From NCBI GenBank assembly GCA_964449925.1, contig CAYVCM010000001.1:10306-74305 (forward strand): a stretch of DNA of 64,000 bases, in the 5' to 3' direction. The translations under genes were made by a program, and so were the position numbers. The notes under the pieces are model-generated. The model ran no database searches. It was not told the origin of the DNA and saw only the letters and a list, made by a program, of their open reading frames with translations. The DNA comes from an uncultured Clostridium sp. (lineage in GTDB: Bacteria; Bacillota; Clostridia; TANB77; CAG-508). Below are positions 2,725-63,355 of the stretch, one piece after another; position 1 is the first letter of the stretch; every line of letters starts with the position of its first letter.

Positions 2725-2870
2725 AATTCTCCTTTCTTTAATATTTGGATTTTTTTAGGTTTTATATGTTTTATTTTGTTACTATTTCTTTTTTATAGTT
2801 TTACCAAATATTTATTTTTTTATTTATTATGTGTATATTATATCACAAAATTTTATTATTATTACATTTT

Positions 2871-3069
2871 TTTGTCGCATTGGGTGTCTCATTGGGGACG
2901 TTTCTTTTTGGGACATTTTTGAACGATAGGGACGGGTCAAATCGTTCAATTTTTGGGTATCTCATTGGAAATGTTTACTTTTGAGAAATTTTGAACGATT
3001 TGACCCGTCCCTATCGTTCAAAAATGTCCCAAAAAGAAACGTCCCCAATGAGACACCCAATGCGACAAA
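2871..3069. repeat. Family-1 intergenic palindromic repeat (~200-bp near-perfect palindrome, arms ~78 bp)
   Basis: Left arm TTTGTCGCATTGGGTGTCTCATTGGGGACGTTTCTTTTTGGGACATTTTTGAACGATAGGGACGGGTCAAATCGTTCAA. The right arm is its reverse complement, read directly. The centre is a degenerate GTATCTCATTGGAAATGTTTACTTTTGAGAAAT unit. GC content is well above the flanking DNA. Confidence 0.85.
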
Positions 3070-3116
3070 AAAAGTGCATCTGATGATACACCTTTTGATT
3101 TGACAAGATTTGCCTA

Positions 3117-3293
3117 TTAATATTTTCTTTTTCTTGCTGCCTCTGATTTTTTCTTTCTCTTTACACTAGGCTTTTCATAATGCTCTCTTTTTCTAACTTC
3201 TTGCAATACTCCATTTCTAGCACATTGTCTTTTAAATCTTTTTAGAGCATCTTCTATATTACCATTATTTACTTTTATTTCTAACAATTTCAT
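3117..3293 (-). CDS. rpsU: 30S ribosomal protein S21
   Basis: 58-aa ORF absent from the ORF track because it is under 60 aa. Translation: [58 protein letters not shown]. The hallmark [13 protein letters not shown] motif of S21 is present. A GGAGGGG RBS lies 6 nt upstream of the ATG. Confidence 0.9.
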
Positions 3294-4161: not shown

Positions 4162-6060
4162 CTAAAGTTCACCAAAAATTGCTTCAAATTCATCTGAATT
4201 AATTTTTTCTTTTTCTAATAATATTCCTGCAACTTTGTGCAATTTATCTATATTATCTGACAATATTTTCTTTGCTCTATTATATCCAGTATCAACGATT
4301 TTCTTTGTTTCTTCATCAATAATTGCTGCTGTTTCTTCTGAATATTCTTTTGTATGTCCGAAATCTCTACCTAAGAAAACTTCATCTTGGCTAGATCCTA
4401 GCATTAAAGCACCAATTTTTTCACTCATACCATATTTTGTTACCATGCTTCTTGCTATTTGTGTTGCTCTTTCAATATCATTACTTGCACCTGTTGATAT
4501 ATCATTTAAGATAAGTGCTTCTGCTACTCTACCACCTAAAAGTGATACAATATTTTCTTCCATTTCTGTTTTTGACATGAAGTTTTTATCTTCTGTTGGT
4601 CTATACATAGTATATCCACCAGCCATACCTCTAGGTACAATTGATATTTCATGTACTGGGTCTTGTGTTTCTAAATAATGGCTAACAACTGCATGACCTG
4701 CTTCATGATATGCAACTAGTTTGTTTTCTTTTTCACTTCTTACTTTTGTTTTCTTTTCAGGTCCCATTGTTACTTTTACCATTGCATCTTCAATTTCTCT
4801 CATACCTATTTCATTCATATTTCTTCTAGCTGCTAATAAAGCTGCTTCATTTAATATGTTTTCTAGGTCTGCTCCTGCAAATCCTGATGTATTTTTTGCA
4901 ATTATTTTTAAGTCTACATCCTCTGCTAATCTTTTCTTTCTTGCGTGTACTTCTAATATTTGTTCTCTTGCCTTTACATCTGGCAATCCTACAACAATTT
5001 GTCTATCAAATCTTCCTGCTCTTAATAAAGCTTTATCTAATACATCTGGTCTGTTTGTAGCTGCTAGAACTATAACACCTTCATTAGTTGAAAATCCATC
5101 CATCTCAACTAATAATTGGTTTAATGTTTGTTCTCTTTCATCATGTCCTCCACCAAGACCTGCACCTCTTTGACGTCCTACTGCATCAATTTCATCTATA
5201 AATATGATACATGGTGCATTTTTCTTTGCTTGGTCAAATAAATCTCTTACTCTAGAAGCACCTACACCAACAAACATTTCTACAAAGTCTGAACCACTAA
5301 TTATAAAGAATGGTACTCCAGCTTCTCCTGCAACTGCTTTTGCAAGTAATGTTTTACCTGTTCCTGGTTGTCCAACTAATAATACACCTTTTGGTATTCT
5401 TGCACCCATATCTGTAAATTTCTTTGGATTTTTTAAGAATTGTACAATTTCTTCTAATTCTTCTTTTTCTTCATCTACACCTGCTACATCTTCAAATGTA
5501 ATTCTATTCTTTTCTGCTGGTGTCATCATTCTTGCTTTACTTTTTCCGAATGTCATTGTTTTATTTCCTGGGTTTCCACTACTAGCTCCTCCCATAGTTA
5601 AAAACCAAAATAGCATAAAGATGATTAATATGGCAAATGGTGTTATTAGTGGAATTAAAGCTACAAAAATAGATTCTTCTTCCTCTTCTAATGTGAAGTT
5701 TCCATTTGACATGAATTCTTCTACATATGTCATAAATGTTCCAATATCTGGTATTGTAACTTCTTTCCTTATACTGTCATCTTTTAATTCTACTTCAGCT
5801 GTTTGACCATCAGAACTTATAACAATTGAATTAACATTGTTGCTATTTATATTTGTAATTAACTCTGAATATGTTAATTTAGAGTTACTATTTTCTACAA
5901 TTGATGATAATACAACTAAAAAAATCACAATGATTATTAGCCACATAGCTAATGTTTTTATTCCGTTTTTCAAAATAATTCCTCCTCTTTGTACTTGATG
6001 TTTATTTAGATATGAACACATATCTTTTTGCACTCTATCACATTGTTTTTTCTTTTTCAA
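4162..6060 (-). CDS. ftsH: ATP-dependent zinc metalloprotease FtsH
   Basis: Walker A GQPGTGKT, the AAA second region of homology, and the zinc motif HEAGHA. An N-terminal transmembrane segment precedes the cytoplasmic domain. The true start is probably internal to the 632-aa ORF. Confidence 0.95.
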
Positions 6061-9218: not shown

Positions 9219-9288
9219 TGTCTCATTGGGGACGTTTCTCTTTGAGACATTTGTGTCTCATTGGGGACGTTTCTCTTTGAGACATTTG
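9219..9288. repeat. Family-1 repeat, two tandem 35-bp hairpin units
   Basis: TGTCTCATTGGGGACGTTTCTCTTTGAGACATTTG occurs twice in tandem. Each unit has a GTCTCA/TGAGAC stem. Confidence 0.85.
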
Positions 9289-17245: not shown

Positions 17246-17269
17246 TTAGAATTTATTCAATTAATTTTT
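17246..17269. repeat. 24-bp direct repeat, copy A, flanking the rpoB-rpoC insertion
   Basis: TTAGAATTTATTCAATTAATTTTT is identical to 17825-17848. Confidence 0.85.
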
Positions 17270-17752
17270 CAAACTGTTATAAAAACTTTTTCTGTATTCT
17301 TCTATTTTCTCATAGCTTACAATTCCAATTTTAAAAATTATTTGTTCGTTTTGTATTTTATAAATAACATCTGTTTTTACTATACTATCTCTATTTAGAT
17401 TATTTGATTCATCTTTTTCTAATAATTTATTAGTTTTAAACTTTAGTTTATTTAGATTAGATGATACAAGCATACCAAAATTTTCTATTGGAACAGCAGT
17501 ATTATCTTGATCTATTATTACAAAAAAATGATTACTACCTATTTTACCATCAGGATAACTATACTCTCTAACAAAAACAATATCTCCAATTTCATAAGGA
17601 TTATATGATTCATTATTCTCTTTTAGCACATTTTCAATTTTTCCTTTGTGCCATTCTTCCTCAACTGGATATTCTTCAAAAGCATCTTTTAAGTCTTTTA
17701 CTCTTCCATATTCATAAGCGGTTTTTAAAAAATCACTTAATTCTTTTTCCAT
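17261..17752 (-). CDS. Hypothetical protein inserted between rpoB and rpoC, with weak PemK/MazF-like toxin-fold similarity
   Basis: 163-aa ORF with an AAAGGAG RBS 11 nt upstream of the ATG. The segment IGDIVFVREYSYPDGKIGSNHFFVIID resembles the GD-[IV]-x-x-[VA]-x-F...G.E..K.RP.V[VI] N-terminal strand pattern of PemK/MazF/CcdB-fold proteins. There is an extra 50-aa N-terminal extension. Confidence 0.55.
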   Translation of the reverse strand: MEKELSDFLKTAYEYGRVKDLKDAFEEYPVEEEWHKGKIENVLKENNESYNPYEIGDIVFVREYSYPDGKIGSNHFFVIIDQDNTAVPIENFGMLVSSNLNKLKFKTNKLLEKDESNNLNRDSIVKTDVIYKIQNEQIIFKIGIVSYEKIEEYRKSFYNSLKN

Positions 17753-22639: not shown

Positions 22640-22659
22640 ATTTTTATTCCCCCTTTTTT

Positions 22660-22714
22660 ATATATCCTGCATTGTGAGGGTTCCAAGCAGGAACCCTCAC
22701 AATGCAGGATATAT
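22660..22714. terminator. 25-bp perfect GC-rich hairpin between two hypothetical genes
   Basis: ATATATCCTGCATTGTGAGGGTTCC, loop AAGCA, GGAACCCTCACAATGCAGGATATAT. It sits between the stop of 22747-23202 and the start of 22052-22639. Confidence 0.5.
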
Positions 22715-22746
22715 ATATATGGATTGTTAATAAAATCTTCCTATGC

Positions 22747-26100: not shown

Positions 26101-26262
26101 GGTGTCGCATTGGGGACGTTTCTCTTTGAGACATTTTTATGTAAAATTGCAAAATGCTATTTTACATTTGTATATAATATTTTAATTTTATATTTTAGTA
26201 TATTAGAAATAGGAATTTTAATTTTACATAAAAATGTCTCAAAGAGAAACGTCCCCAATGCG
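26101..26262. repeat. Family-1 palindromic repeat with a ~100-bp AT-rich core containing its own inverted repeat
   Basis: The arms are GGTGTCGCATTGGGGACGTTTCTCTTTGAGACATTTTTATGTAAAAT and ATTTTACATAAAAATGTCTCAAAGAGAAACGTCCCCAATGCGACAC. Confidence 0.85.
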
Positions 26263-26314
26263 ACACAATGCTATATAAAAGAAAATGCCTCCTAATGGAG
26301 ACATCTCTCTATTT

Positions 26315-27283
26315 TTATTCCACAACACTTACTGTTAAATATTTTACGCCCCATTGTAAAGCTTCTGCATGTGTACTAACAAATATGTCTATAGTATTTC
26401 CAGTAACAGAGCCTCCTCTATCTTCAACTGTATAAACGTGTCCACCAATATTTAATTTTGTTCCAAATGCAAAATTACTTGAAGCTGCAACTGTTCTACC
26501 TGCTGTTGCCGTTGTTCCTGAAGCAGTTGTTCCAGTTGAGTTACCACAGCATTTACTACAAGGGCAGTATGCTGTAACTTTATATACAGTTCCACTTGAG
26601 CTTGATGTACTTGTACTTGTTGATGTTGTTGACGTACTTGTTGAACTTGTTGTTCTTGTTGTTGTTGAACTTCTTGAAGTTGTATTTTTTTGAACTTGAA
26701 CAATTTTATCTACTGGTTCTTCTATAACAACTTCTGATATGACTGTTTTTTCAATTTCTACATCATTTTGATATTTTACTTTATATGTTACTTCTTTTAA
26801 TCCGTCTTTTCCTTCTTGTACAACTTTGTTTGTTGTATCTTCTGTTGCATCTGTTGTGTCTTTTGTGATTGTCTCATAAGGTATTGTAACCTGTTCTACA
26901 ACTATTTTTTCTGTGATTGGTGCATAATTTTCTAGTAATTGCTCTAATGAAGTTTCAACTCCTTCTTCTGATATTGTTGCAATTTGTACTTCATTATATG
27001 ATTTATCTGTTATTTGGATTGTATCACCTGATGATATTTCACTATCCAAATCTGGTATCGTTTTTTGGTCATCGCTTAGTATGATTCCGTTTTCATCTAA
27101 AACATCTGATACTGTACTTTTTGATGTTACAGTTGTCATTTCATATCCATTTTGTAATATAATAGTTATGTCTTTTAAGTCTGTGCTTACTGCCATAACA
27201 CTAATTCCTGATATTAATATAAAAATTATGCTTACACAGATAATCTTCATTATAGAAATTGAAGCCTTTTCTTCTCGTTTCAT
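26315..27283 (-). CDS. Cell-wall-associated 3D-domain protein (YabE-like: DUF348, Ser/Thr-rich linker, 3D domain)
   Basis: The C-terminal 3D/MltA-like domain reads YKVTAYCPCSKCCG...GHVYTVEDRGG...IDIF. The N-terminus has a signal/TM segment and a DUF348-like region. The low-complexity linker is TTSRSSTTTRTTSSTSTSTTSTSTSTSSSSGT. Confidence 0.8.
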   Translation of the reverse strand: MKREEKASISIMKIICVSIIFILISGISVMAVSTDLKDITIILQNGYEMTTVTSKSTVSDVLDENGIILSDDQKTIPDLDSEISSGDTIQITDKSYNEVQIATISEEGVETSLEQLLENYAPITEKIVVEQVTIPYETITKDTTDATEDTTNKVVQEGKDGLKEVTYKVKYQNDVEIEKTVISEVVIEEPVDKIVQVQKNTTSRSSTTTRTTSSTSTSTTSTSTSTSSSSGTVYKVTAYCPCSKCCGNSTGTTASGTTATAGRTVAASSNFAFGTKLNIGGHVYTVEDRGGSVTGNTIDIFVSTHAEALQWGVKYLTVSVVE

Positions 27284-27525
27284 AAAATTAAATTACCTCC
27301 TTTTGGCAACACATTACTATTATACTATTATTTGAACAAAAAGTCAAATTTCAAGTTCAAAATCGAAGCAATCTGTTGCATCCCTAAGAATATATGGGTA
27401 TTATTTTTTTATATTTTTATTAAAAAATTTCATAAATTGCTTATATTTGTCCATTTTTTATCCATAATATAATATATGAAAATTTTTTAAAAATATTCCT
27501 TTTTTTGTTACTTTTCATAATTAGT

Positions 27526-27655
27526 ATGGTAGCTAGTGTAGAGGTATATGTGCTATGAACATCATTCTAAAATTATTAACAAATTCTAAAAATATTTCCA
27601 ATCACATTCGTCATCTATTCAATTTAAAATAATGTCCCTTCACACTATCTACCAT
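27526..27655. repeat. Degenerate short relative (~130 bp) of the 30236-30485 MITE-like element
   Basis: Imperfect terminal inverted repeats ATGGTAGCTAGTGTAGAGGTATAT and GTCCCTTCACACTATCTACCAT. The internal sequence TTTCCAATCACATTCGTCATCTATTCAAT is the reverse complement of 30289-30317 with one mismatch. Confidence 0.6.
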
Positions 27656-27777
27656 ATTAATTATGAAAAGTGACATATTTTTGATTTTTTTGTGAAATTT
27701 TTTTATAAATATTGTAGAAATAATATTAATATGTTATGATAATTTTGTATATATTATAGATAAGGAGGATTGTACAC

Positions 27778-28341
27778 ATGATCATTTTTATTATTTTATT
27801 TATTATAATTGCTGTCATTATAGCAGTAATAGCTATGTATAATGGTTTAGTTCAATCTAAAATAAAAGTTGATAATGCATGGAGTCAAATAGATGTACAA
27901 TTACAAAGAAGATTTGACCTTATACCTAATTTTGTTGAAACTGTAAAAGGTTACATGACACATGAATCTGAAACATTTGAAAAAATTGCACAACTAAGAA
28001 CCTCATGGGCACAAGCAGAAAGTGTTTCTAAAAAAGCTGAATTAGATAATCAACTATCTACTGCTTTAAAAACTATAATGGCAGTGTCTGAAAGCTATCC
28101 TGATTTAAAAGCAAACCAAAACTTCTCAGATTTGTCAGAAGAACTTAGAAATACAGAAAATAAAATTTCTTTTTCTAGACAATTCTATAATGATACTGTA
28201 ACAACATATAACACAAAATTAGAAGTTTTCCCATCTAACATTATTGCTGGTATGTTTCATTTTACACCTCGTGACTTATTCGTTGCTGAAAATGAAGAAG
28301 CCAGAAAAAATGTAAAAGTAGATTTTGGAAAAAATCAATAG
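27778..28341 (+). CDS. lemA: LemA family protein
   Basis: 187 aa. N-terminal TM helix, then the conserved LemA core (NGLV...AWSQIDVQLQRRFDLIPN). Confidence 0.85.
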   Translation: MIIFIILFIIIAVIIAVIAMYNGLVQSKIKVDNAWSQIDVQLQRRFDLIPNFVETVKGYMTHESETFEKIAQLRTSWAQAESVSKKAELDNQLSTALKTIMAVSESYPDLKANQNFSDLSEELRNTENKISFSRQFYNDTVTTYNTKLEVFPSNIIAGMFHFTPRDLFVAENEEARKNVKVDFGKNQ

Positions 28342-29344: not shown

Positions 29345-29390
29345 AAAAAAGTTCACAAAACTTATTTAAATCAGTTTTGTGAACTTTTTG
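29345..29390. terminator. Bidirectional terminator between htpX (+) and tatD (-)
   Basis: AAAAAAGTTCACAAAAC, loop TTATTTAAATCA, GTTTTGTGAACTTTTTG. It overlaps the last codons of tatD. Confidence 0.7.
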
Positions 29391-30177
29391 TTACAAGTAT
29401 TTTTTCAGCATTATTGTAAGTTATTTTTGCAACATCTTCTAGTGGCAAGCCCTTCACATCAGCAATTTTTTGTGCAATATGTTTTACATTTCTCGGATCA
29501 TTTCTAGTTCCCCTTACTGGTTCTGGTGCTAAATAAGGACTATCTGTTTCTATAAGCATTTTATCTACTGGTACCATTTCTATAATTTCATTTGCATTTT
29601 TTGAATTTTTGAAAGTTACTGGCCCTGCAAACGAAATATAAAATCCAAGCTTTAATGCCTCTTTTACCAATTCTCTATTTAATGGACAACAATGAAAAAT
29701 ACCTTTTTTGCTAACCGTATGTGTTTTTAATATTTCTAATGTATCCATAATAGCATCTCTTGTATGTATAACAATTGGTAAATTAAAATCATTTGCCATT
29801 TCGATTTGTTTTACAAAAGCATTTTTTTGTAATTCTCTTCTTTCTAAATTTTTTTCCCAATAATAGTCTAATCCAATTTCTCCAATTGCTACAATTTTTT
29901 TATCTTTTATATTATTTTTCACTAATTCGTTTATAGTTTCTATATCTTTCCACAATTCTTCTTCAATTTGTGGAATATCATTTGGAGAAATTCCACAGGT
30001 GGTATAAATATAGTCATATTTTTTTGATAATTCAACACCTTTAATAGAACCTTCTACACTATATCCTGCTGATACTATTTTTGTTATATCCGCTTTTTTT
30101 ATTTCTGCTATTAAATTTTCTCTATCTTCATTAAATTTTTCGTCATCTAAATGACAATGACTATCAAAAAATTCCAT
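29371..30177 (-). CDS. tatD: TatD family metal-dependent deoxyribonuclease/hydrolase
   Basis: 268 aa. The N-terminus FDSHCHLD is the TatD signature, followed by the conserved His and Asp ligands of the family. Confidence 0.9.
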   Translation of the reverse strand: MEFFDSHCHLDDEKFNEDRENLIAEIKKADITKIVSAGYSVEGSIKGVELSKKYDYIYTTCGISPNDIPQIEEELWKDIETINELVKNNIKDKKIVAIGEIGLDYYWEKNLERRELQKNAFVKQIEMANDFNLPIVIHTRDAIMDTLEILKTHTVSKKGIFHCCPLNRELVKEALKLGFYISFAGPVTFKNSKNANEIIEMVPVDKMLIETDSPYLAPEPVRGTRNDPRNVKHIAQKIADVKGLPLEDVAKITYNNAEKILVTKSSQN

Positions 30178-30235: not shown

Positions 30236-30485
30236 GGTTACTATTCAGAGTTATATGGTAACAAGGTGTGGAGGTATATTATTTTAAATTGAATAAATGA
30301 CGAATGTGATTGGAAAATGATTAGAACATCTTAAATTTTTTTATGGAAAATGTTCGCGCTTGACGTGAAAGGGTGCCATAAAAAAATTTTAGAGGTTCTT
30401 AAAATTTGTATTGAGCCGAGGAATTTATGAAATTTAAAATAATATACCTCCACACCTTGTTACCATATAACTCTGAATAGTAACC
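30236..30485. mobile_element. MITE-like non-autonomous element, 250 bp with 50-bp perfect terminal inverted repeats
   Basis: The left TIR GGTTACTATTCAGAGTTATATGGTAACAAGGTGTGGAGGTATATTATTTT is the exact reverse complement of the right TIR (30436-30485). The ~150-bp core has no ORF. The element fills most of the acpS-tatD intergenic gap. Confidence 0.5.
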
Positions 30486-30495
30486 AATATTTAAT

Positions 30496-30879
30496 TCATT
30501 TCCACATTACTACTACATTTGCTGTGGCATATTCTTTACAATGTGATATACTAATATCTATTTCTTCAATATCTTGTATTTTGATATTCAAAAAATGAAC
30601 ATGTGGTCTTCCATTTTCATCATTTAGTACCTCTATATCTTTCCATCCAATATCATATTTATTTTCTAAATGGCTAGAAATCGCCTTAAACACAGCCTCT
30701 TTCGCAGCAAACCTAGCTGAATAGTGTTGATATTTTTGAGTTTTTTTACTTTCACAATATTCTATTTCTTTTTTTGTATAGATGCGCTCTAAAAAATTCA
30801 TTCCCAAATCTTCTATACTTTCTTTTATTCGTTTTATTTCAATAATATCTGTTCCACAACTAATTTTCATTTTCAACAA
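30496..30879 (-). CDS. acpS: Holo-[acyl-carrier-protein] synthase
   Basis: 127 aa. GTDIIEI...FAAKEAVFKA is the 4'-phosphopantetheinyl transferase signature. Confidence 0.85.
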   Translation of the reverse strand: MLKMKISCGTDIIEIKRIKESIEDLGMNFLERIYTKKEIEYCESKKTQKYQHYSARFAAKEAVFKAISSHLENKYDIGWKDIEVLNDENGRPHVHFLNIKIQDIEEIDISISHCKEYATANVVVMWK

Positions 30880-31040
30880 CCTTTTTCCTTTTTAATTTAC
30901 TATATGACTTTAGAACAAATCGGAAAGCCTTAAAAATCATTCTAATTTTATTTTATCGCTTTGGCTTTCCGTAAATTTGCGTGCAATTGCTGGAGCAAAG
31001 CGACTTTCATATAATGGTAATATTTGATAAATTATTTCAA

Positions 31041-31196
31041 GCGATGATTTGAGGACGGAGCAAAAAATCATCATTTGTATAAATAAATTTTTATATAATT
31101 TTTATAATACAAATGATGATTTTTTGCTCCGTCCTCAAATCATCGCTTGCTTCGTCCCCAAAATGTCTCAAAAAGAAACGTCCCCAATGAGACATA
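31041..31196. repeat. Composite Family-1 repeat: a 40-bp perfect IR module plus a GGGGACG hairpin unit
   Basis: GCGATGATTTGAGGACGGAGCAAAAAATCATCATTTGTAT, then a 28-nt loop, then ATACAAATGATGATTTTTTGCTCCGTCCTCAAATCATCGC. This is followed by CGTCCCCAAAATGTCTCAAAAAGAAACGTCCCCAATGAGACAT. Confidence 0.85.
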
Positions 31197-52700: not shown

Positions 52701-54726
52701 CTACTTCTATTTCTTGAGAAACTCTACCTATTTCTTCATTATTTGAATAAGCATTTGCTTTTTCATTTGTATATGTTACATTAATTGATTCAGGTTGTGC
52801 AATTGATGTTTTGTTTACATGAACTGTTGCATCAATGATAATGTTTGCACCTTCTACTGATTGTGATTTATATGAAGTTTGTTCACCTTCCATTTGGATT
52901 GTGATATATCTTCCATCTACTGTATAATTTGCAATTGATAATTCTTCTTCATATAAGACATTTATACTATTTATATCTATACTTTCTACTTGTTCTGGTA
53001 ATTCTATTGTAAATGTTGGGTTTTTGTATAAATCTCTTGATTCTTCATCTGTTTTTAGTATAAGTTTTATTTCAATATCATTTGAAACTACTGTTGATAA
53101 TGTATTTCTACTAAGTTCTAATCTTGTTTCTGTTACTGTTTCATTTAGTCCCATTGAAATCTCTGTTTCAGATTCTATACCTGTTGTATATGTTACTCCA
53201 TTAATAGCTAATTCTTCTAAACTATAATTGTTATATCCATATACAATTTTTGTAGCAATACTTGTTGCTGAACTTACTATACTACTATCTGATGCACCAA
53301 TTGTTTTTGTATGTGTAAATGTTAAACTTCCTTCATTAATTGGTTGTGATGTTTTGATTGTAATTGCTTTTGGATTTCTGTCTGTATAATCAATTACAAT
53401 ATTTCCATCATCGTCTGCTTCTGTTTCACTTGTTATTGTTGCAAGTAATTCATTATCTTCGTTATATATTTCAATTGTTCCTTCTGCACCAAATATGTTG
53501 TCAAAAGTTTCTTTAGAAATAGTTGTTTTATTATAGTATATGTTACTATCTACTTCTCCATTTTCTGATATATATCTACTAGCTTCTTCATTAATATATA
53601 TGTATTCTTCAATGTTTGCTAAATTAATATCTAAAGTTGTTTCACTTGTGTATTGTTTATCAATTCCAGAATATAATTTTCCTTTATATATACTTTCTTC
53701 AGAATTACTTACTGTAACTCCTATTGTAGAGTCAATTTCTTCATTAGATAAAGTAACTGTTCCTGCATTAGATGTCAATTGCTTATCATTTTGTAATGTT
53801 ACAGTTTCCTCTGTTGTGATTTGTACATCATCTAATGTTACACTTGCATCATATATATATGTTAATATGATGTTTTCTTCTCCTTGTCTTTCCCATAAGA
53901 TGGTATCATCTTCTCCTACTTCATTTGTTAATGTGATTTCAACATATCCGTTCTCATATTTATAATCAAATGCTGACATTGTGTTTAAATTAACATCATA
54001 CATAACTTCTGGTGATAGTCCACTAATTTCTGGAGCATTAATTTTTGTATAAATTTCTTTTATTGGATAATTATTATCTTGCAATCCTAAACTTAATGAT
54101 AGTTGGACAATTCTTTTGTCTTCACCATCTATTTTGATTATTTTGTTTGTAATAACTTGTATTTCATTTTTTACATTTTCATTTGTATTTGATTCAGCTA
54201 ATTGCATTGTTACTGTTCTTGTTGCATCAATATTAATATCTTTTTCTGTATTATCTCTATAAATACCTGTTAGTGTTAATTCGCTTTCTATATCTAGCAT
54301 ATCTATATTCATAACTTCTTCATCTATTGGCTCTACTATTACTTCAATTTCTGCTGTTGTTCCAACATCTAATTGATTTAAATAGACAATATTGTCAGAA
54401 ATACTACTTACATATTCACTTTCTGAACTAACAATATTAAAGTTAGAATTTGACAATGCTATTTGTCCTACAAAAAATCCCTCTGTTTTAACATTAACAG
54501 CTAAATACAAAGATATTTCTTGCATATCTGCTGTTCTTTCTAGTGTTGTTGTTGCTTGCCCATCATCATCTTTGAAATAGGCTTCAAATTCTATATTTTT
54601 GTTATTCGTACTAGTTGCATCTGCTGCATAACTAATAAGGCTCGAACCCAAAAATATAAAATTAGTCATAGTTAGTGTCATTATTAAAAGAATAACTACA
54701 CTAATTTTAAAAATCCCTTTTTTCAT
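49798..54726 (-). CDS. A'-type giant surface protein (DUF11 / conserved-repeat-domain and SdrD-B-like repeats; C-terminal SVKTG, TM helix, KRKNSKEEE)
   Basis: 1642 aa. Signal peptide MKKGIFKISVVILLIMTLTMTNFIFLGSSLISYAADA. An acidic linker precedes the SdrD-B-like module ISGYAWYDEDNDGRKSSSE...GITVRLLN. The DUF11-like module reads Y.I.VTN.GE..GYARSIVDYLPSDLEF. GGGAGGT RBS. A paralog of the A-part of 36729-45464. Confidence 0.85.
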   Translation of the reverse strand: MKKGIFKISVVILLIMTLTMTNFIFLGSSLISYAADATSTNNKNIEFEAYFKDDDGQATTTLERTADMQEISLYLAVNVKTEGFFVGQIALSNSNFNIVSSESEYVSSISDNIVYLNQLDVGTTAEIEVIVEPIDEEVMNIDMLDIESELTLTGIYRDNTEKDINIDATRTVTMQLAESNTNENVKNEIQVITNKIIKIDGEDKRIVQLSLSLGLQDNNYPIKEIYTKINAPEISGLSPEVMYDVNLNTMSAFDYKYENGYVEITLTNEVGEDDTILWERQGEENIILTYIYDASVTLDDVQITTEETVTLQNDKQLTSNAGTVTLSNEEIDSTIGVTVSNSEESIYKGKLYSGIDKQYTSETTLDINLANIEEYIYINEEASRYISENGEVDSNIYYNKTTISKETFDNIFGAEGTIEIYNEDNELLATITSETEADDDGNIVIDYTDRNPKAITIKTSQPINEGSLTFTHTKTIGASDSSIVSSATSIATKIVYGYNNYSLEELAINGVTYTTGIESETEISMGLNETVTETRLELSRNTLSTVVSNDIEIKLILKTDEESRDLYKNPTFTIELPEQVESIDINSINVLYEEELSIANYTVDGRYITIQMEGEQTSYKSQSVEGANIIIDATVHVNKTSIAQPESINVTYTNEKANAYSNNEEIGRVSQEIEVVAPKDVTAINTIEALDVETIGEDEETSVSLQRGTDAIQMEVTFEIINNNEEDLNNVYILGTFPTKTDTEENNIDIEIIDGISIENATVYYTENEDATADLEDEENAWTEELTSSTEVKKYLIVMDSIASRTLVGGSYTIEVPQNLEYNQTATEGYAITYTNAGTGTESTVSATDISMETGVGPKLETSISATVGGEELTSSSIVRNGEVIKYCIEVSNVGSEDVSDIAVTGNIPDGTVLVEPVDNYEYTGASYYTEVETNAYGTTIESLAVGEVTYVEYEVMVESDLEEGTSITGTAEINFSDVVQETNELTVTSGTGTLRAMVKRVTDRTVDLYESGTVAYYGIVKNTTSETINNVTVQTNKSDSLQVSRVTIISGVGEDEVSDDDIYIISSDNVPEVSEDDESYATSSEVTSEEIEYSDEINIGTLEPGESKIIEYIMEIGTMPADTDTVEISIVASDGTISHRSNQWIDTVNSFDIEMSMEANTEDGYVKSGDNIIYTIRVNNTSESSTNGLTISDAIPSQLTVQSVTVNGEETDITSNNVEITEEVEANSEMEIVIETVVDYVEGRTEAETITNMATASIYGEEVAETSAINHVIAADVEDDDENTTTGTDTDDGESGNIANGTQMISGYAWYDEDNDGRKSSSESTLSGITVRLLNVETNQLVRNTSGNVLEATTNSNGMYVLENLSDGQYIVIFDYDESTYSLTTYQADGVSDSENSNARTNELLIEGEKQEVASTDIISIESNNVSNINIGLIDLQTFDLKLDKYISRIITQNSTSGTTTREYTDTTTAKIELSSKEMSGTNVVIEYEIVVTNVGEVAGYARSIVDYLPSDLEFSADLNSDWYLSGNYLYTTALSNEIINPGESKTVTLTLTKTMGEDNLVTRNNAEIYEAYNNQGLDDINSTPGNNVSGENDIGYADVIISVKTGTALYISIGVIVAILVVAGVTAGIIVKRKNSKEEE

Positions 54727-63194: not shown

Positions 63195-63197
63195 TTT

Positions 63198-63324
63198 TTG
63201 TCTCATTGGGGATGTTTCTTTTTGAGACATTTTGGGGACGGTGATGATTTGGGGACAGAGCAAGTGATGATTTTTTGCTCCGTCCCCAAAATGTCTCAAA
63301 AAGAAACATCCCCAATGAGACAAA
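63198..63324. repeat. Family-1 palindromic repeat between the convergent mecA and M23-peptidase genes
   Basis: TGTCTCATTGGGGATGTTTCTTTTTGAGACATTTTGGGGACGG ... GATGATTTTTTGCTCCGTCCCCAAAATGTCTCAAAAAGAAACATCCCCAATGAGACA. It shares the GATGATTTTTTGCTCCGTCC module with 31041-31196. Confidence 0.85.
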
Positions 63325-63355
63325 ACGAAGATTCATTTAAGAATCCTCGTCTTTT

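Follow-up and report, generated by a model that had tools for sequence, protein, structure and literature searches.

Introduction

Short palindromic repeats shape bacterial intergenic regions, can alter mRNA processing and break short-read assemblies, as they do at the locus described here. The well-studied families come almost all from Proteobacteria, Neisseria and streptococci. REPINs, found in Pseudomonas fluorescens SBW25 and other Proteobacteria, are hairpin-forming doublets of REP sequences that are mobilised by RAYT tyrosine transposases (PMC3116915, PMC3337134). Solitary REPs are interpreted as what is left of doublets, and the REPIN excisions that have been seen are asymmetric, leaving part of one REP behind (PMC3116915). 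The Correia elements (CREE/NEMIS) of Neisseria are non-coding, intergenic and about 100-250 bp long, with terminal inverted repeats (TIRs) of 26 nt and a conserved core. They form a long RNA hairpin, are often co-transcribed with their neighbours, differ in presence between strains, show length variants by internal deletion, duplicate a TA target and reach hundreds of copies; IHF, promoter and RNase III functions have been documented (PMC2649163, PMC2229807). The ERIC/IRU repeats of enterobacteria and the RUP, BOX and SPRITE repeats of pneumococci are imperfect palindromes of about 100-130 bp or more in transcribed intergenic DNA, high in copy number, with internal indel variants and a mobilisation mechanism that is obscure or trans-acting (PMC3049150). 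PATEs and IS200/IS605 miniatures rely on hairpins and make no target-site duplication; the ends of IS200/IS605 elements are short subterminal hairpins without long TIRs (PMC3119063).

One process, as opposed to an element family, is also of concern here. Nearly precise excision of Tn10 is a transposase-independent deletion between short direct repeats inside long inverted repeats, by which a small palindromic remnant is left. It was reportedly described by Ross, Swan and Kleckner in 1979 and by Foster et al. in 1981 (both cited in 10.1101/2023.06.07.543989).

Here we describe two related palindromic elements, A and B, in a 64-kb window, by which we mean the whole stretch of DNA that was analysed. 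The starting point was an original prediction, made from the sequence of the window, of a MITE-like element at 30236-30485 and a degenerate relative nearby.

Results

Genomic context

The window is chromosomal, has a low GC content (about 28%) and belongs to a spore-forming Firmicute, an uncultured member of the Clostridia of gut type. Its genes include rpoB/rpoC, dnaB, ftsH, tilS, spoIIE and mreBCD/minC. Among species-representative genomes the nearest are MAGs of uncultured Clostridia or Clostridium sp., and their TatD identities are at most 83%. Element B occupies 30236-30485, in the 318-nt spacer between the co-directional genes acpS (30496-30879, minus strand) and tatD (29371-30177, minus strand), and lies 58 nt upstream of tatD. 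Element A occupies 27506-27675, with a G5/3D-domain gene (26315-27283, minus strand) on one side and lemA (27778-28341, plus strand) on the other; all four genes were assigned by means of Pfam. A is situated between two divergent promoters, those of the G5/3D-domain gene and of lemA, that are conserved across species, and its placement there is neutral. Among window ORFs of at least 120 aa no transposase or recombinase domain, Y1_Tnp included, was found.

Apart from these loci, a 163-aa ORF (17261-17752, minus strand) with a weak match to PemK/MazF-like toxins (24.5 bits, cut-off 23.1) separates rpoB from rpoC, normally adjacent genes. Three consecutive giant ORFs of 2915, 1323 and 1642 aa at 36729-54726 (minus strand) contain SpaA, SdrD_B, DUF11 and CarboxypepD_reg domains and are probably cell-surface proteins.

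Structure of element B

Element B is a quasi-palindrome of 250 bp. The original prediction had placed it at precisely these positions and given it perfect TIRs of 50 nt; its arm sequence is correct and the perfection reaches 55 nt. The left (30236-30298) and right (30423-30485) arms measure 63 nt each and are complementary at 61 of 63 positions (97%); counted inwards from the ends of the element, the mismatch-free stretch is 55 nt long. A 25-nt segment of the arm matched the two arms alone, and not one of 100 shuffles gave any match. Further inwards 30315-30346 and 30376-30407 form inner arms with 84% complementarity around an apex (30347-30375) that carries the GC-richer stretch GTTCGCGCTTGACGTGAAAGGGTG; this stretch had been reported correctly as part of the core and can now be located at its tip. 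Palindromy thus spans about 110 nt per side, and nothing is asymmetric other than a patch of about 24 nt on each side and the apex of about 29 nt. The arms had been rightly recognised; the core of about 150 bp that they were said to enclose is itself largely palindromic.

All 250 bp are predicted to fold as a single hairpin, with -127 kcal/mol as RNA (z = -17.4). The other strand, folded as RNA, also gives one hairpin (-114 kcal/mol, z = -20), and as DNA the element reaches -79 kcal/mol (z = -18).

Each outer end consists of a terminal unit, S, of 27-28 nt. S is AT-rich and has the form GGTTAC-N16-GTAACC, with a 6-bp stem and a 16-nt loop. The tatD-proximal unit (30236-30262; GGTTAC-N15-G-GTAAC) and the inverted copy at the acpS-proximal end (30459-30485) give B the layout S' ... 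S with about 195 bp in between. We take S to be neither an integron attC nor a dif-like site, as its GTTAC ends misfit GTTRRRY and dif-type arms are absent from it.

That the element is non-coding, as had been proposed, is borne out: B and A are small (250 and 170 bp), stop codons occur in all six frames, leaving no coding capacity, and a lone 40-aa open frame had no real relatives among 1.84 billion protein representatives, where it gave low-complexity matches alone.

Element A is a decayed relative of B

Inverted-repeat analysis and alignment to B define A (TGTTAC...GTGACA) as a decayed and internally shortened element of 170 bp. Its left (27506-27549) and right (27632-27675) arms are about 84% complementary over 45 aligned columns. 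A relative with homologous but imperfect TIRs had indeed been predicted here; its extent, given as 27526-27655, was too short. The reverse complement of A aligns to B with 78% identity along about 121 nt, including a block of 39 nt with one mismatch, ATTATTTTAAATTGAATAAATGACGAATGTGATTGGAAA, found at 30278-30316 (plus strand) in B and at 27595-27633 (minus strand) in A. The inverted orientation of this block relative to B agrees with the earlier description and its length, put at 29 bp, does not. The core of the block, GAATGTGATTGGA, is also invariant in the third, partial copy described below. By our own calculation the near-invariance of the 39 nt has a P of about 7e-4 for one window at 22% divergence. 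The alignment hereby hints at a possible constraint that pure selfish-DNA drift would leave unexplained.

The arms of A are homologous to those of B along their full length of about 45 nt, outermost GTTAC included, and A carries S-type ends like B at another site. Manual alignment showed eight differences, six substitutions and two one-base indels, that separate both A arms from both B arms. Between the two A arms there are seven differences, and between the two B arms, in their outer 55 nt, there are none. Since the eight differences from B are common to both arms of A, the arms have co-evolved. From these alignments it appears that the propagating lineage kept or re-made complementary arms and that A has been drifting since. 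In its layout A resembles an element of type B in which about 85 nt have been lost from the stretch that joins the apex to one of the arms. No copies beyond A and B were found in the 64-kb window.

Short-read contigs of the same organism were recovered by exact-protein look-up. A is identical (100%, flanks included) in the independent Logan assemblies L025 and L026 and is therefore not an assembly artefact. Contigs L001 and L002 run into B from tatD and end 30 nt into the arm, and L107 also ends inside the repeat; such ends are expected of an inverted repeat longer than k. With A reproduced and contigs of three samples entering the arm of B from the tatD side, an artefact of assembly was ruled out.

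The B site in the sister lineage

Contigs L020 and L021 represent a sister lineage with 94-96% nucleotide identity to the window (about 5% diverged). Their acpS-tatD spacer of 97 nt contains exactly one terminal unit S, GGTTACAATATAACTCTGAATAGTAACC. Alignment to the sister sequence shows an extra segment of 222 bp in the window (30263-30484), the edges of which are a 5-bp direct repeat, GTAAC, at 30258-30262 and 30480-30484, such that the boundaries can slide by 5 bp. The filled site hence reads S'-interior-S and the site of the sister lineage S. The two S copies of B are identical to each other and differ by one base from that of the sister. Since the outer 28 nt of the arm are present in L020/L021, the B site was occupied before the split at about 5% divergence, and since the sister site is not truly empty it does not document a clean insertion event for B. 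The alignment fits both loss in the sister lineage and later gain in the lineage of the window. In the first scenario the full element would be ancestral, and a deletion from one GTAAC repeat to the other would have removed 222 bp in the sister. In the second, S would have been first at the site and the 222-nt S'-interior unit would have come later.

Under drift since the split about 2.8 differences between the outer 55 nt of the arms are expected and none is seen (P about 0.06, our own arithmetic). If the full element is ancestral, this shortfall suggests arm homogenisation. The earlier conclusion that perfect TIRs imply recent mobilisation is not supported, given a site occupied before the split, arms that co-evolve and no near-identical copy in the sets searched: as the arms of the family co-evolve, their perfection can stem from homogenisation or regeneration and need not mean that they are young.

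One could also imagine that the palindrome was made in place, S having been both expanded and perfected on the spot, through template-switching during replication or through inverted duplication, and without transposition. The solitary S of the sister lineage, the two identical S copies of B at one base from it, the mildly surprising lack of arm mismatches and several other perfect palindromes in the window that look nested like onion layers would all suit such an origin. It is nevertheless improbable, since the approximately 195 bp between the S copies are homologous to A at another locus and to the partial copy in another species, and since A has S-type ends at a different site. This homology means that S plus interior, at least, arrived as a unit.

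Distribution among relatives

In 13 relatives the acpS-tatD spacer measures 13-129 nt, versus 318 nt in the window, and shows no trace of S or B; the longest, the 129 nt of L134, is unrelated sequence. The spacer upstream of lemA is about 250-280 nt in L028-L030 versus 494 nt in the window, where A is the extra DNA. The flanks of A could not be aligned to those of the relatives and so do not reveal a clean insertion event for A. By these spacers, A and B are both gains specific to this lineage.

A third, partial copy was found in L130, directly after the stop codon of tatD in a species with 86% TatD identity. It comprises 81 nt with 78% identity to the half-core of B (E = 1e-12) and the contig ends at the apex. 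Its flank resembles the arms of A and B weakly. Since L130 shares the core and its flank hardly matches the arms, arms and core are maybe separable modules. The family thus occupies three or more distinct sites between genes, and does so in two species. The suspicion that B might be a one-off local palindrome can be dismissed, given A at a second locus, the partial copy in L130, absence from the spacers of 13 relatives and the presence/absence difference with the sister lineage.

Some irregularities were observed next to these loci. In the sister lineage homology upstream of lemA ends 18 nt from the right end of A (window about 27693), and beyond this break the sister (L133, 1-1347) has a Peptidase_M14 gene in place of the G5/3D gene. 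L020 ends at the same point, and more distant relatives retain the gene order of the window. In L134 (930-1008) TatD gives way abruptly, 20 codons short of its usual end, to new sequence that is unrelated to A and B, which could be a chimeric scaffold or an insertion.

Search for a parent element and further copies

The original prediction proposed to look for an IS with matching TIRs and for target-site duplications in the flanks. No IS with matching ends (GGTTACTATTCAGAG...) was identified in plasmids, phages, viral contigs or JGI metagenomes. A blastn search of B against plasmids and phages gave no match. An arm pattern and a 17-nt block, each scanned against viral contigs, retrieved chance matches only, and all 22 loci retrieved from JGI metagenomes with a two-gap arm pattern were due to chance. 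A first metagenome scan with the A-type arm pattern had 0 matches, as had GTDB genome contigs scanned with a pattern that fits A-type but not B-type arms (B-type e.g. TTCAGAGTTATATGGTAACAAGGTGTGGAGG). An nhmmer profile of the three copies detected nothing new in 1.64 Mb of related loci. Solitary S was absent elsewhere from the window and from 1.6 Mb of loci, its one instance being the B site of L020/L021. In total, the 64 kb of the window hold two copies and about 230 kb of related genomes a partial one, a low number that counts against the reading favoured below; a near-identical second copy was not found in any sequence set searched.

Target-site duplications were absent at both copies (n=2). 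The flanks of B (...TTGTTAA and AATATTT...) and A (...CTTTTTT and TATTTTT...) have no adjacent direct repeat longer than a trivial AA. Thus the transposase encoded elsewhere, which had been postulated for B, found no backing in the ORFs of the window, in the IS ends of the databases searched or in the insertion sites.

These results speak to the reading of B as a classical MITE, i.e. a deletion derivative of an IS with TIRs of about 50 bp that was recently moved, with target-site duplication, by a DDE transposase encoded elsewhere. Small size, lack of coding capacity and long TIRs agree with membership of that class. The diverged second copy with its internal deletion is what MITE families have, orthologous sites in relatives are without the element, and the ends of A read TG...CA. 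However, neither copy has a duplicated target, no parent IS was found in the sets searched, and palindromy over about 110 nt per side would not be expected of a deleted IS, in which the 5' and 3' interiors are unrelated. Moreover, the sister lineage keeps a whole terminal unit instead of an empty site or a short footprint, and a near-identical sibling copy is missing from the sets searched. We consider a classical MITE unlikely. A related candidate, an IS remnant made of the 5' and 3' ends of a transposase gene, was excluded because the interior is itself palindromic.

Predicted RNA structure and promoters

The original prediction had also suggested that the core encodes a small RNA. The window has no match to Rfam at gathering thresholds, and A and B with E-values up to 5 yielded only a chance match to pntA (24 bits, E = 1.4). 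A convincing common sub-structure of the three copies was not detected (-4.5 kcal/mol, covariation term -0.1), and the element has no terminator-like end. The suggestion is hereby not sustained. More broadly, the repeat might be a structured RNA, either a small RNA gene or a selected cis-acting element for processing or stability of the acpS-tatD transcript. The extreme stability of the predicted hairpin on both strands and the conservation of the 39-nt block plus a half-core of about 80 nt across three loci would fit this. Stability is, however, equally a property of the DNA, and the three copies have unrelated transcriptional contexts, one preceding tatD, one following it and one lying between divergent promoters. 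Together with the failure to find a family or shared fold this makes a structured RNA of either kind very unlikely.

Promoter-like matches in the window are at background (33 found versus 26.9 expected). One of these, ATCACA-18-TAAAAT, matches 9 of 12 consensus positions; in A as in B it is directed at the neighbouring gene, as is the conserved block. An outward promoter was rejected as a feature of the element: the match is at background level, lemA retains its own conserved promoter downstream of A and the block in L130 points into the 3' end of tatD. The same data argue against an inverton, in which a site-specific recombinase would flip the asymmetric core between the inverted repeats and so alter transcription into tatD. 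Perfect inverted repeats around a partly asymmetric segment of about 124 nt, 58 nt upstream of tatD, the weak promoter-like match and the short-read contigs that break within the repeat are what such a switch might produce. Yet a contig break is expected of any inverted repeat longer than k, the arms of A are complementary at about 84% only, recombinase domains are absent from the window and a solitary S, as in the sister lineage, is not a state of an inverton. We give this explanation hardly any credence.

Other palindromes in the window and the clade

The window has at least six more long palindromes, all of them unrelated to A and B and some perfect. A 29-nt unit, GTCTCATTGGGGACGTTTCTTTTTGAGAC, unrelated to A and B, has nine copies at up to three mismatches (2886-2914, 3026-3054, 9220-9248, 9255-9283, 26104-26132, 26236-26264, 31165-31193, 63200-63228 and 63293-63321) where 0 are expected by chance. 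The copies are arranged as inverted doublets, a tandem pair and a singlet; as an exact degenerate pattern the unit is absent from all related loci examined. It forms palindromes at 2867-3073 (arms of 88 nt, 98%), 26102-26266 (47 nt, 100%) and 63196-63325 (46 nt, 100%), in which the arms within one element are more alike than units between elements. The first looks nested like an onion: a central diverged unit is surrounded by a GAACGAT...ATCGTTC hairpin pair, unit pairs and then GTCGCATTGGG pairs. Further palindromes, with other sequences, lie at 31038-31149 (56-nt arms, spacer of 0), 45682-45797 (56-nt arms, 4-nt loop) and 22652-22722 (33-nt arms). Sub-threshold Rfam matches of 31038-31149 to many miRNA-precursor models are a generic hairpin effect.

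Related MAGs have (G)GGGACG-rich palindromes of their own (L029 at 1363-1515 and 5804-5906, L022 at 3015-3245). Short units of the type CCCCAATG(N)GAC occur directly after the stop codon of acpS, in the acpS-tatD spacers of L022, L023, L027, L030 and L131; L022 has two tandem 14-nt copies, ATCCCTATGCGACA, and L131 one. In the sequences compared, acpS-tatD spacers are hot spots for small repeats across the clade. B thus exemplifies a wider load of palindromic repeats, as yet uncharacterised, that the clade carries. As the window holds other, unrelated long palindromes, the genome tolerates or generates such elements.

Discussion

We consider it probable that A and B are members of a small family of intergenic repeats of the MITE/REPIN type, restricted to this lineage and selfish or neutral, that are non-coding and non-autonomous, form hairpins, are gained and lost through hairpin or single-stranded intermediates and have no dedicated host function. 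In our best reading B is an intact unit that consists of two inverted S, inner arms and a largely palindromic core, and A is an older copy. The family is new in sequence but not in kind; it is fairly ordinary bacterial mobile or junk DNA.

Comparison with described systems

The architecture resembles that of REPINs. Both are non-coding and intergenic, with inverted units (S' ... S in B) that fold as one hairpin; the solitary S may be a doublet remnant, the 222-bp asymmetric difference leaves one terminal unit and the arms co-evolve. There is no sequence similarity to REPINs. S is AT-rich, where REP hairpins are GC-rich and have a 5' GTAG; the spacer, at about 195 bp, is much longer than the tens of bp of REPINs, and the interior, not the terminal unit, is best conserved. 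Two to three copies were found in the sequence examined (64 kb of host genome) versus tens to hundreds per genome, no RAYT is present in window ORFs of at least 120 aa and the host, represented by a MAG, belongs to the Clostridia and not to the Proteobacteria. On sequence grounds architecture and asymmetric indel would thus place the family with REPINs and the features of REP sequence would not.

Correia elements share with A and B the size range, intergenic non-coding nature, TIRs with a conserved core, long RNA hairpin, differences in presence between closely related genomes and length variation by internal deletion. They differ by their shorter inverted repeats, TA duplication, copy number, documented host functions and unrelated sequence. 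ERIC/IRU and RUP/BOX/SPRITE resemble the family as intergenic palindromes with internal indel variants, but have other sequences and hosts and are high-copy families; B is longer and its arms are far more perfect. With PATEs and IS200/IS605 miniatures it shares the lack of target-site duplication and the reliance on hairpins, and the GGTTAC at the boundary makes a junction beside a TTAC-type sequence, as in IS200/IS605 elements, possible. It differs in having long TIRs, and TnpA/TnpB was not found here.

In its geometry, with GTAAC at either boundary and the 28-nt S left over, the 222-bp difference exactly matches nearly precise excision of Tn10. The latter is however a process and not an element family, and for B it would be deduced from one lineage comparison.

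Proposed mechanism

If A and B indeed form a selfish hairpin family, what propagates would be the palindrome itself, with arms that stay or become complementary along the propagating lineage. Movement and loss would then follow a single-strand or hairpin route. This could involve an enzyme like those of REPINs or IS200/IS605 that is supplied in trans, or slippage of replication from one GTAAC repeat to the other, promoted by the hairpin; DDE cut-and-paste with target duplication is probably not the route. No dedicated host function is expected, and signs of one were not found. Should acpS and tatD be co-transcribed, B would place an RNA duplex of about 110 bp in their transcript, and an effect on processing may occur as a by-product.

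A bolder version, which we regard as a long shot, is a REPIN-like hairpin transposon system in Clostridia with an asymmetric moving unit. The 222 nt of S' plus interior would excise, leaving the 28-nt S, and re-insert beside a solitary S by S'-S pairing in single-stranded DNA, by which the perfect palindrome would be regenerated every time. If true, this would account for perfect arms at a site occupied since before the divergence of about 5%, for changes common to both arms across the family and for the absent target duplications. Combined with the unrelated nested palindromes, it would point to a hairpin-processing enzyme, HUH/Y1-like or other, that is active in the clade.

Biological implications

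The window thus adds a new, sequence-unrelated family from an uncultured low-GC lineage of Clostridia to the palindromic repeats of bacteria, together with one lineage comparison that has an asymmetric geometry like that reported for REPIN excision. Unless a mobilising enzyme is found, it would be a routine matter of annotation, as a repeat region and not a gene. If one is found, hairpin-based mobile DNA would be extended to Clostridia.
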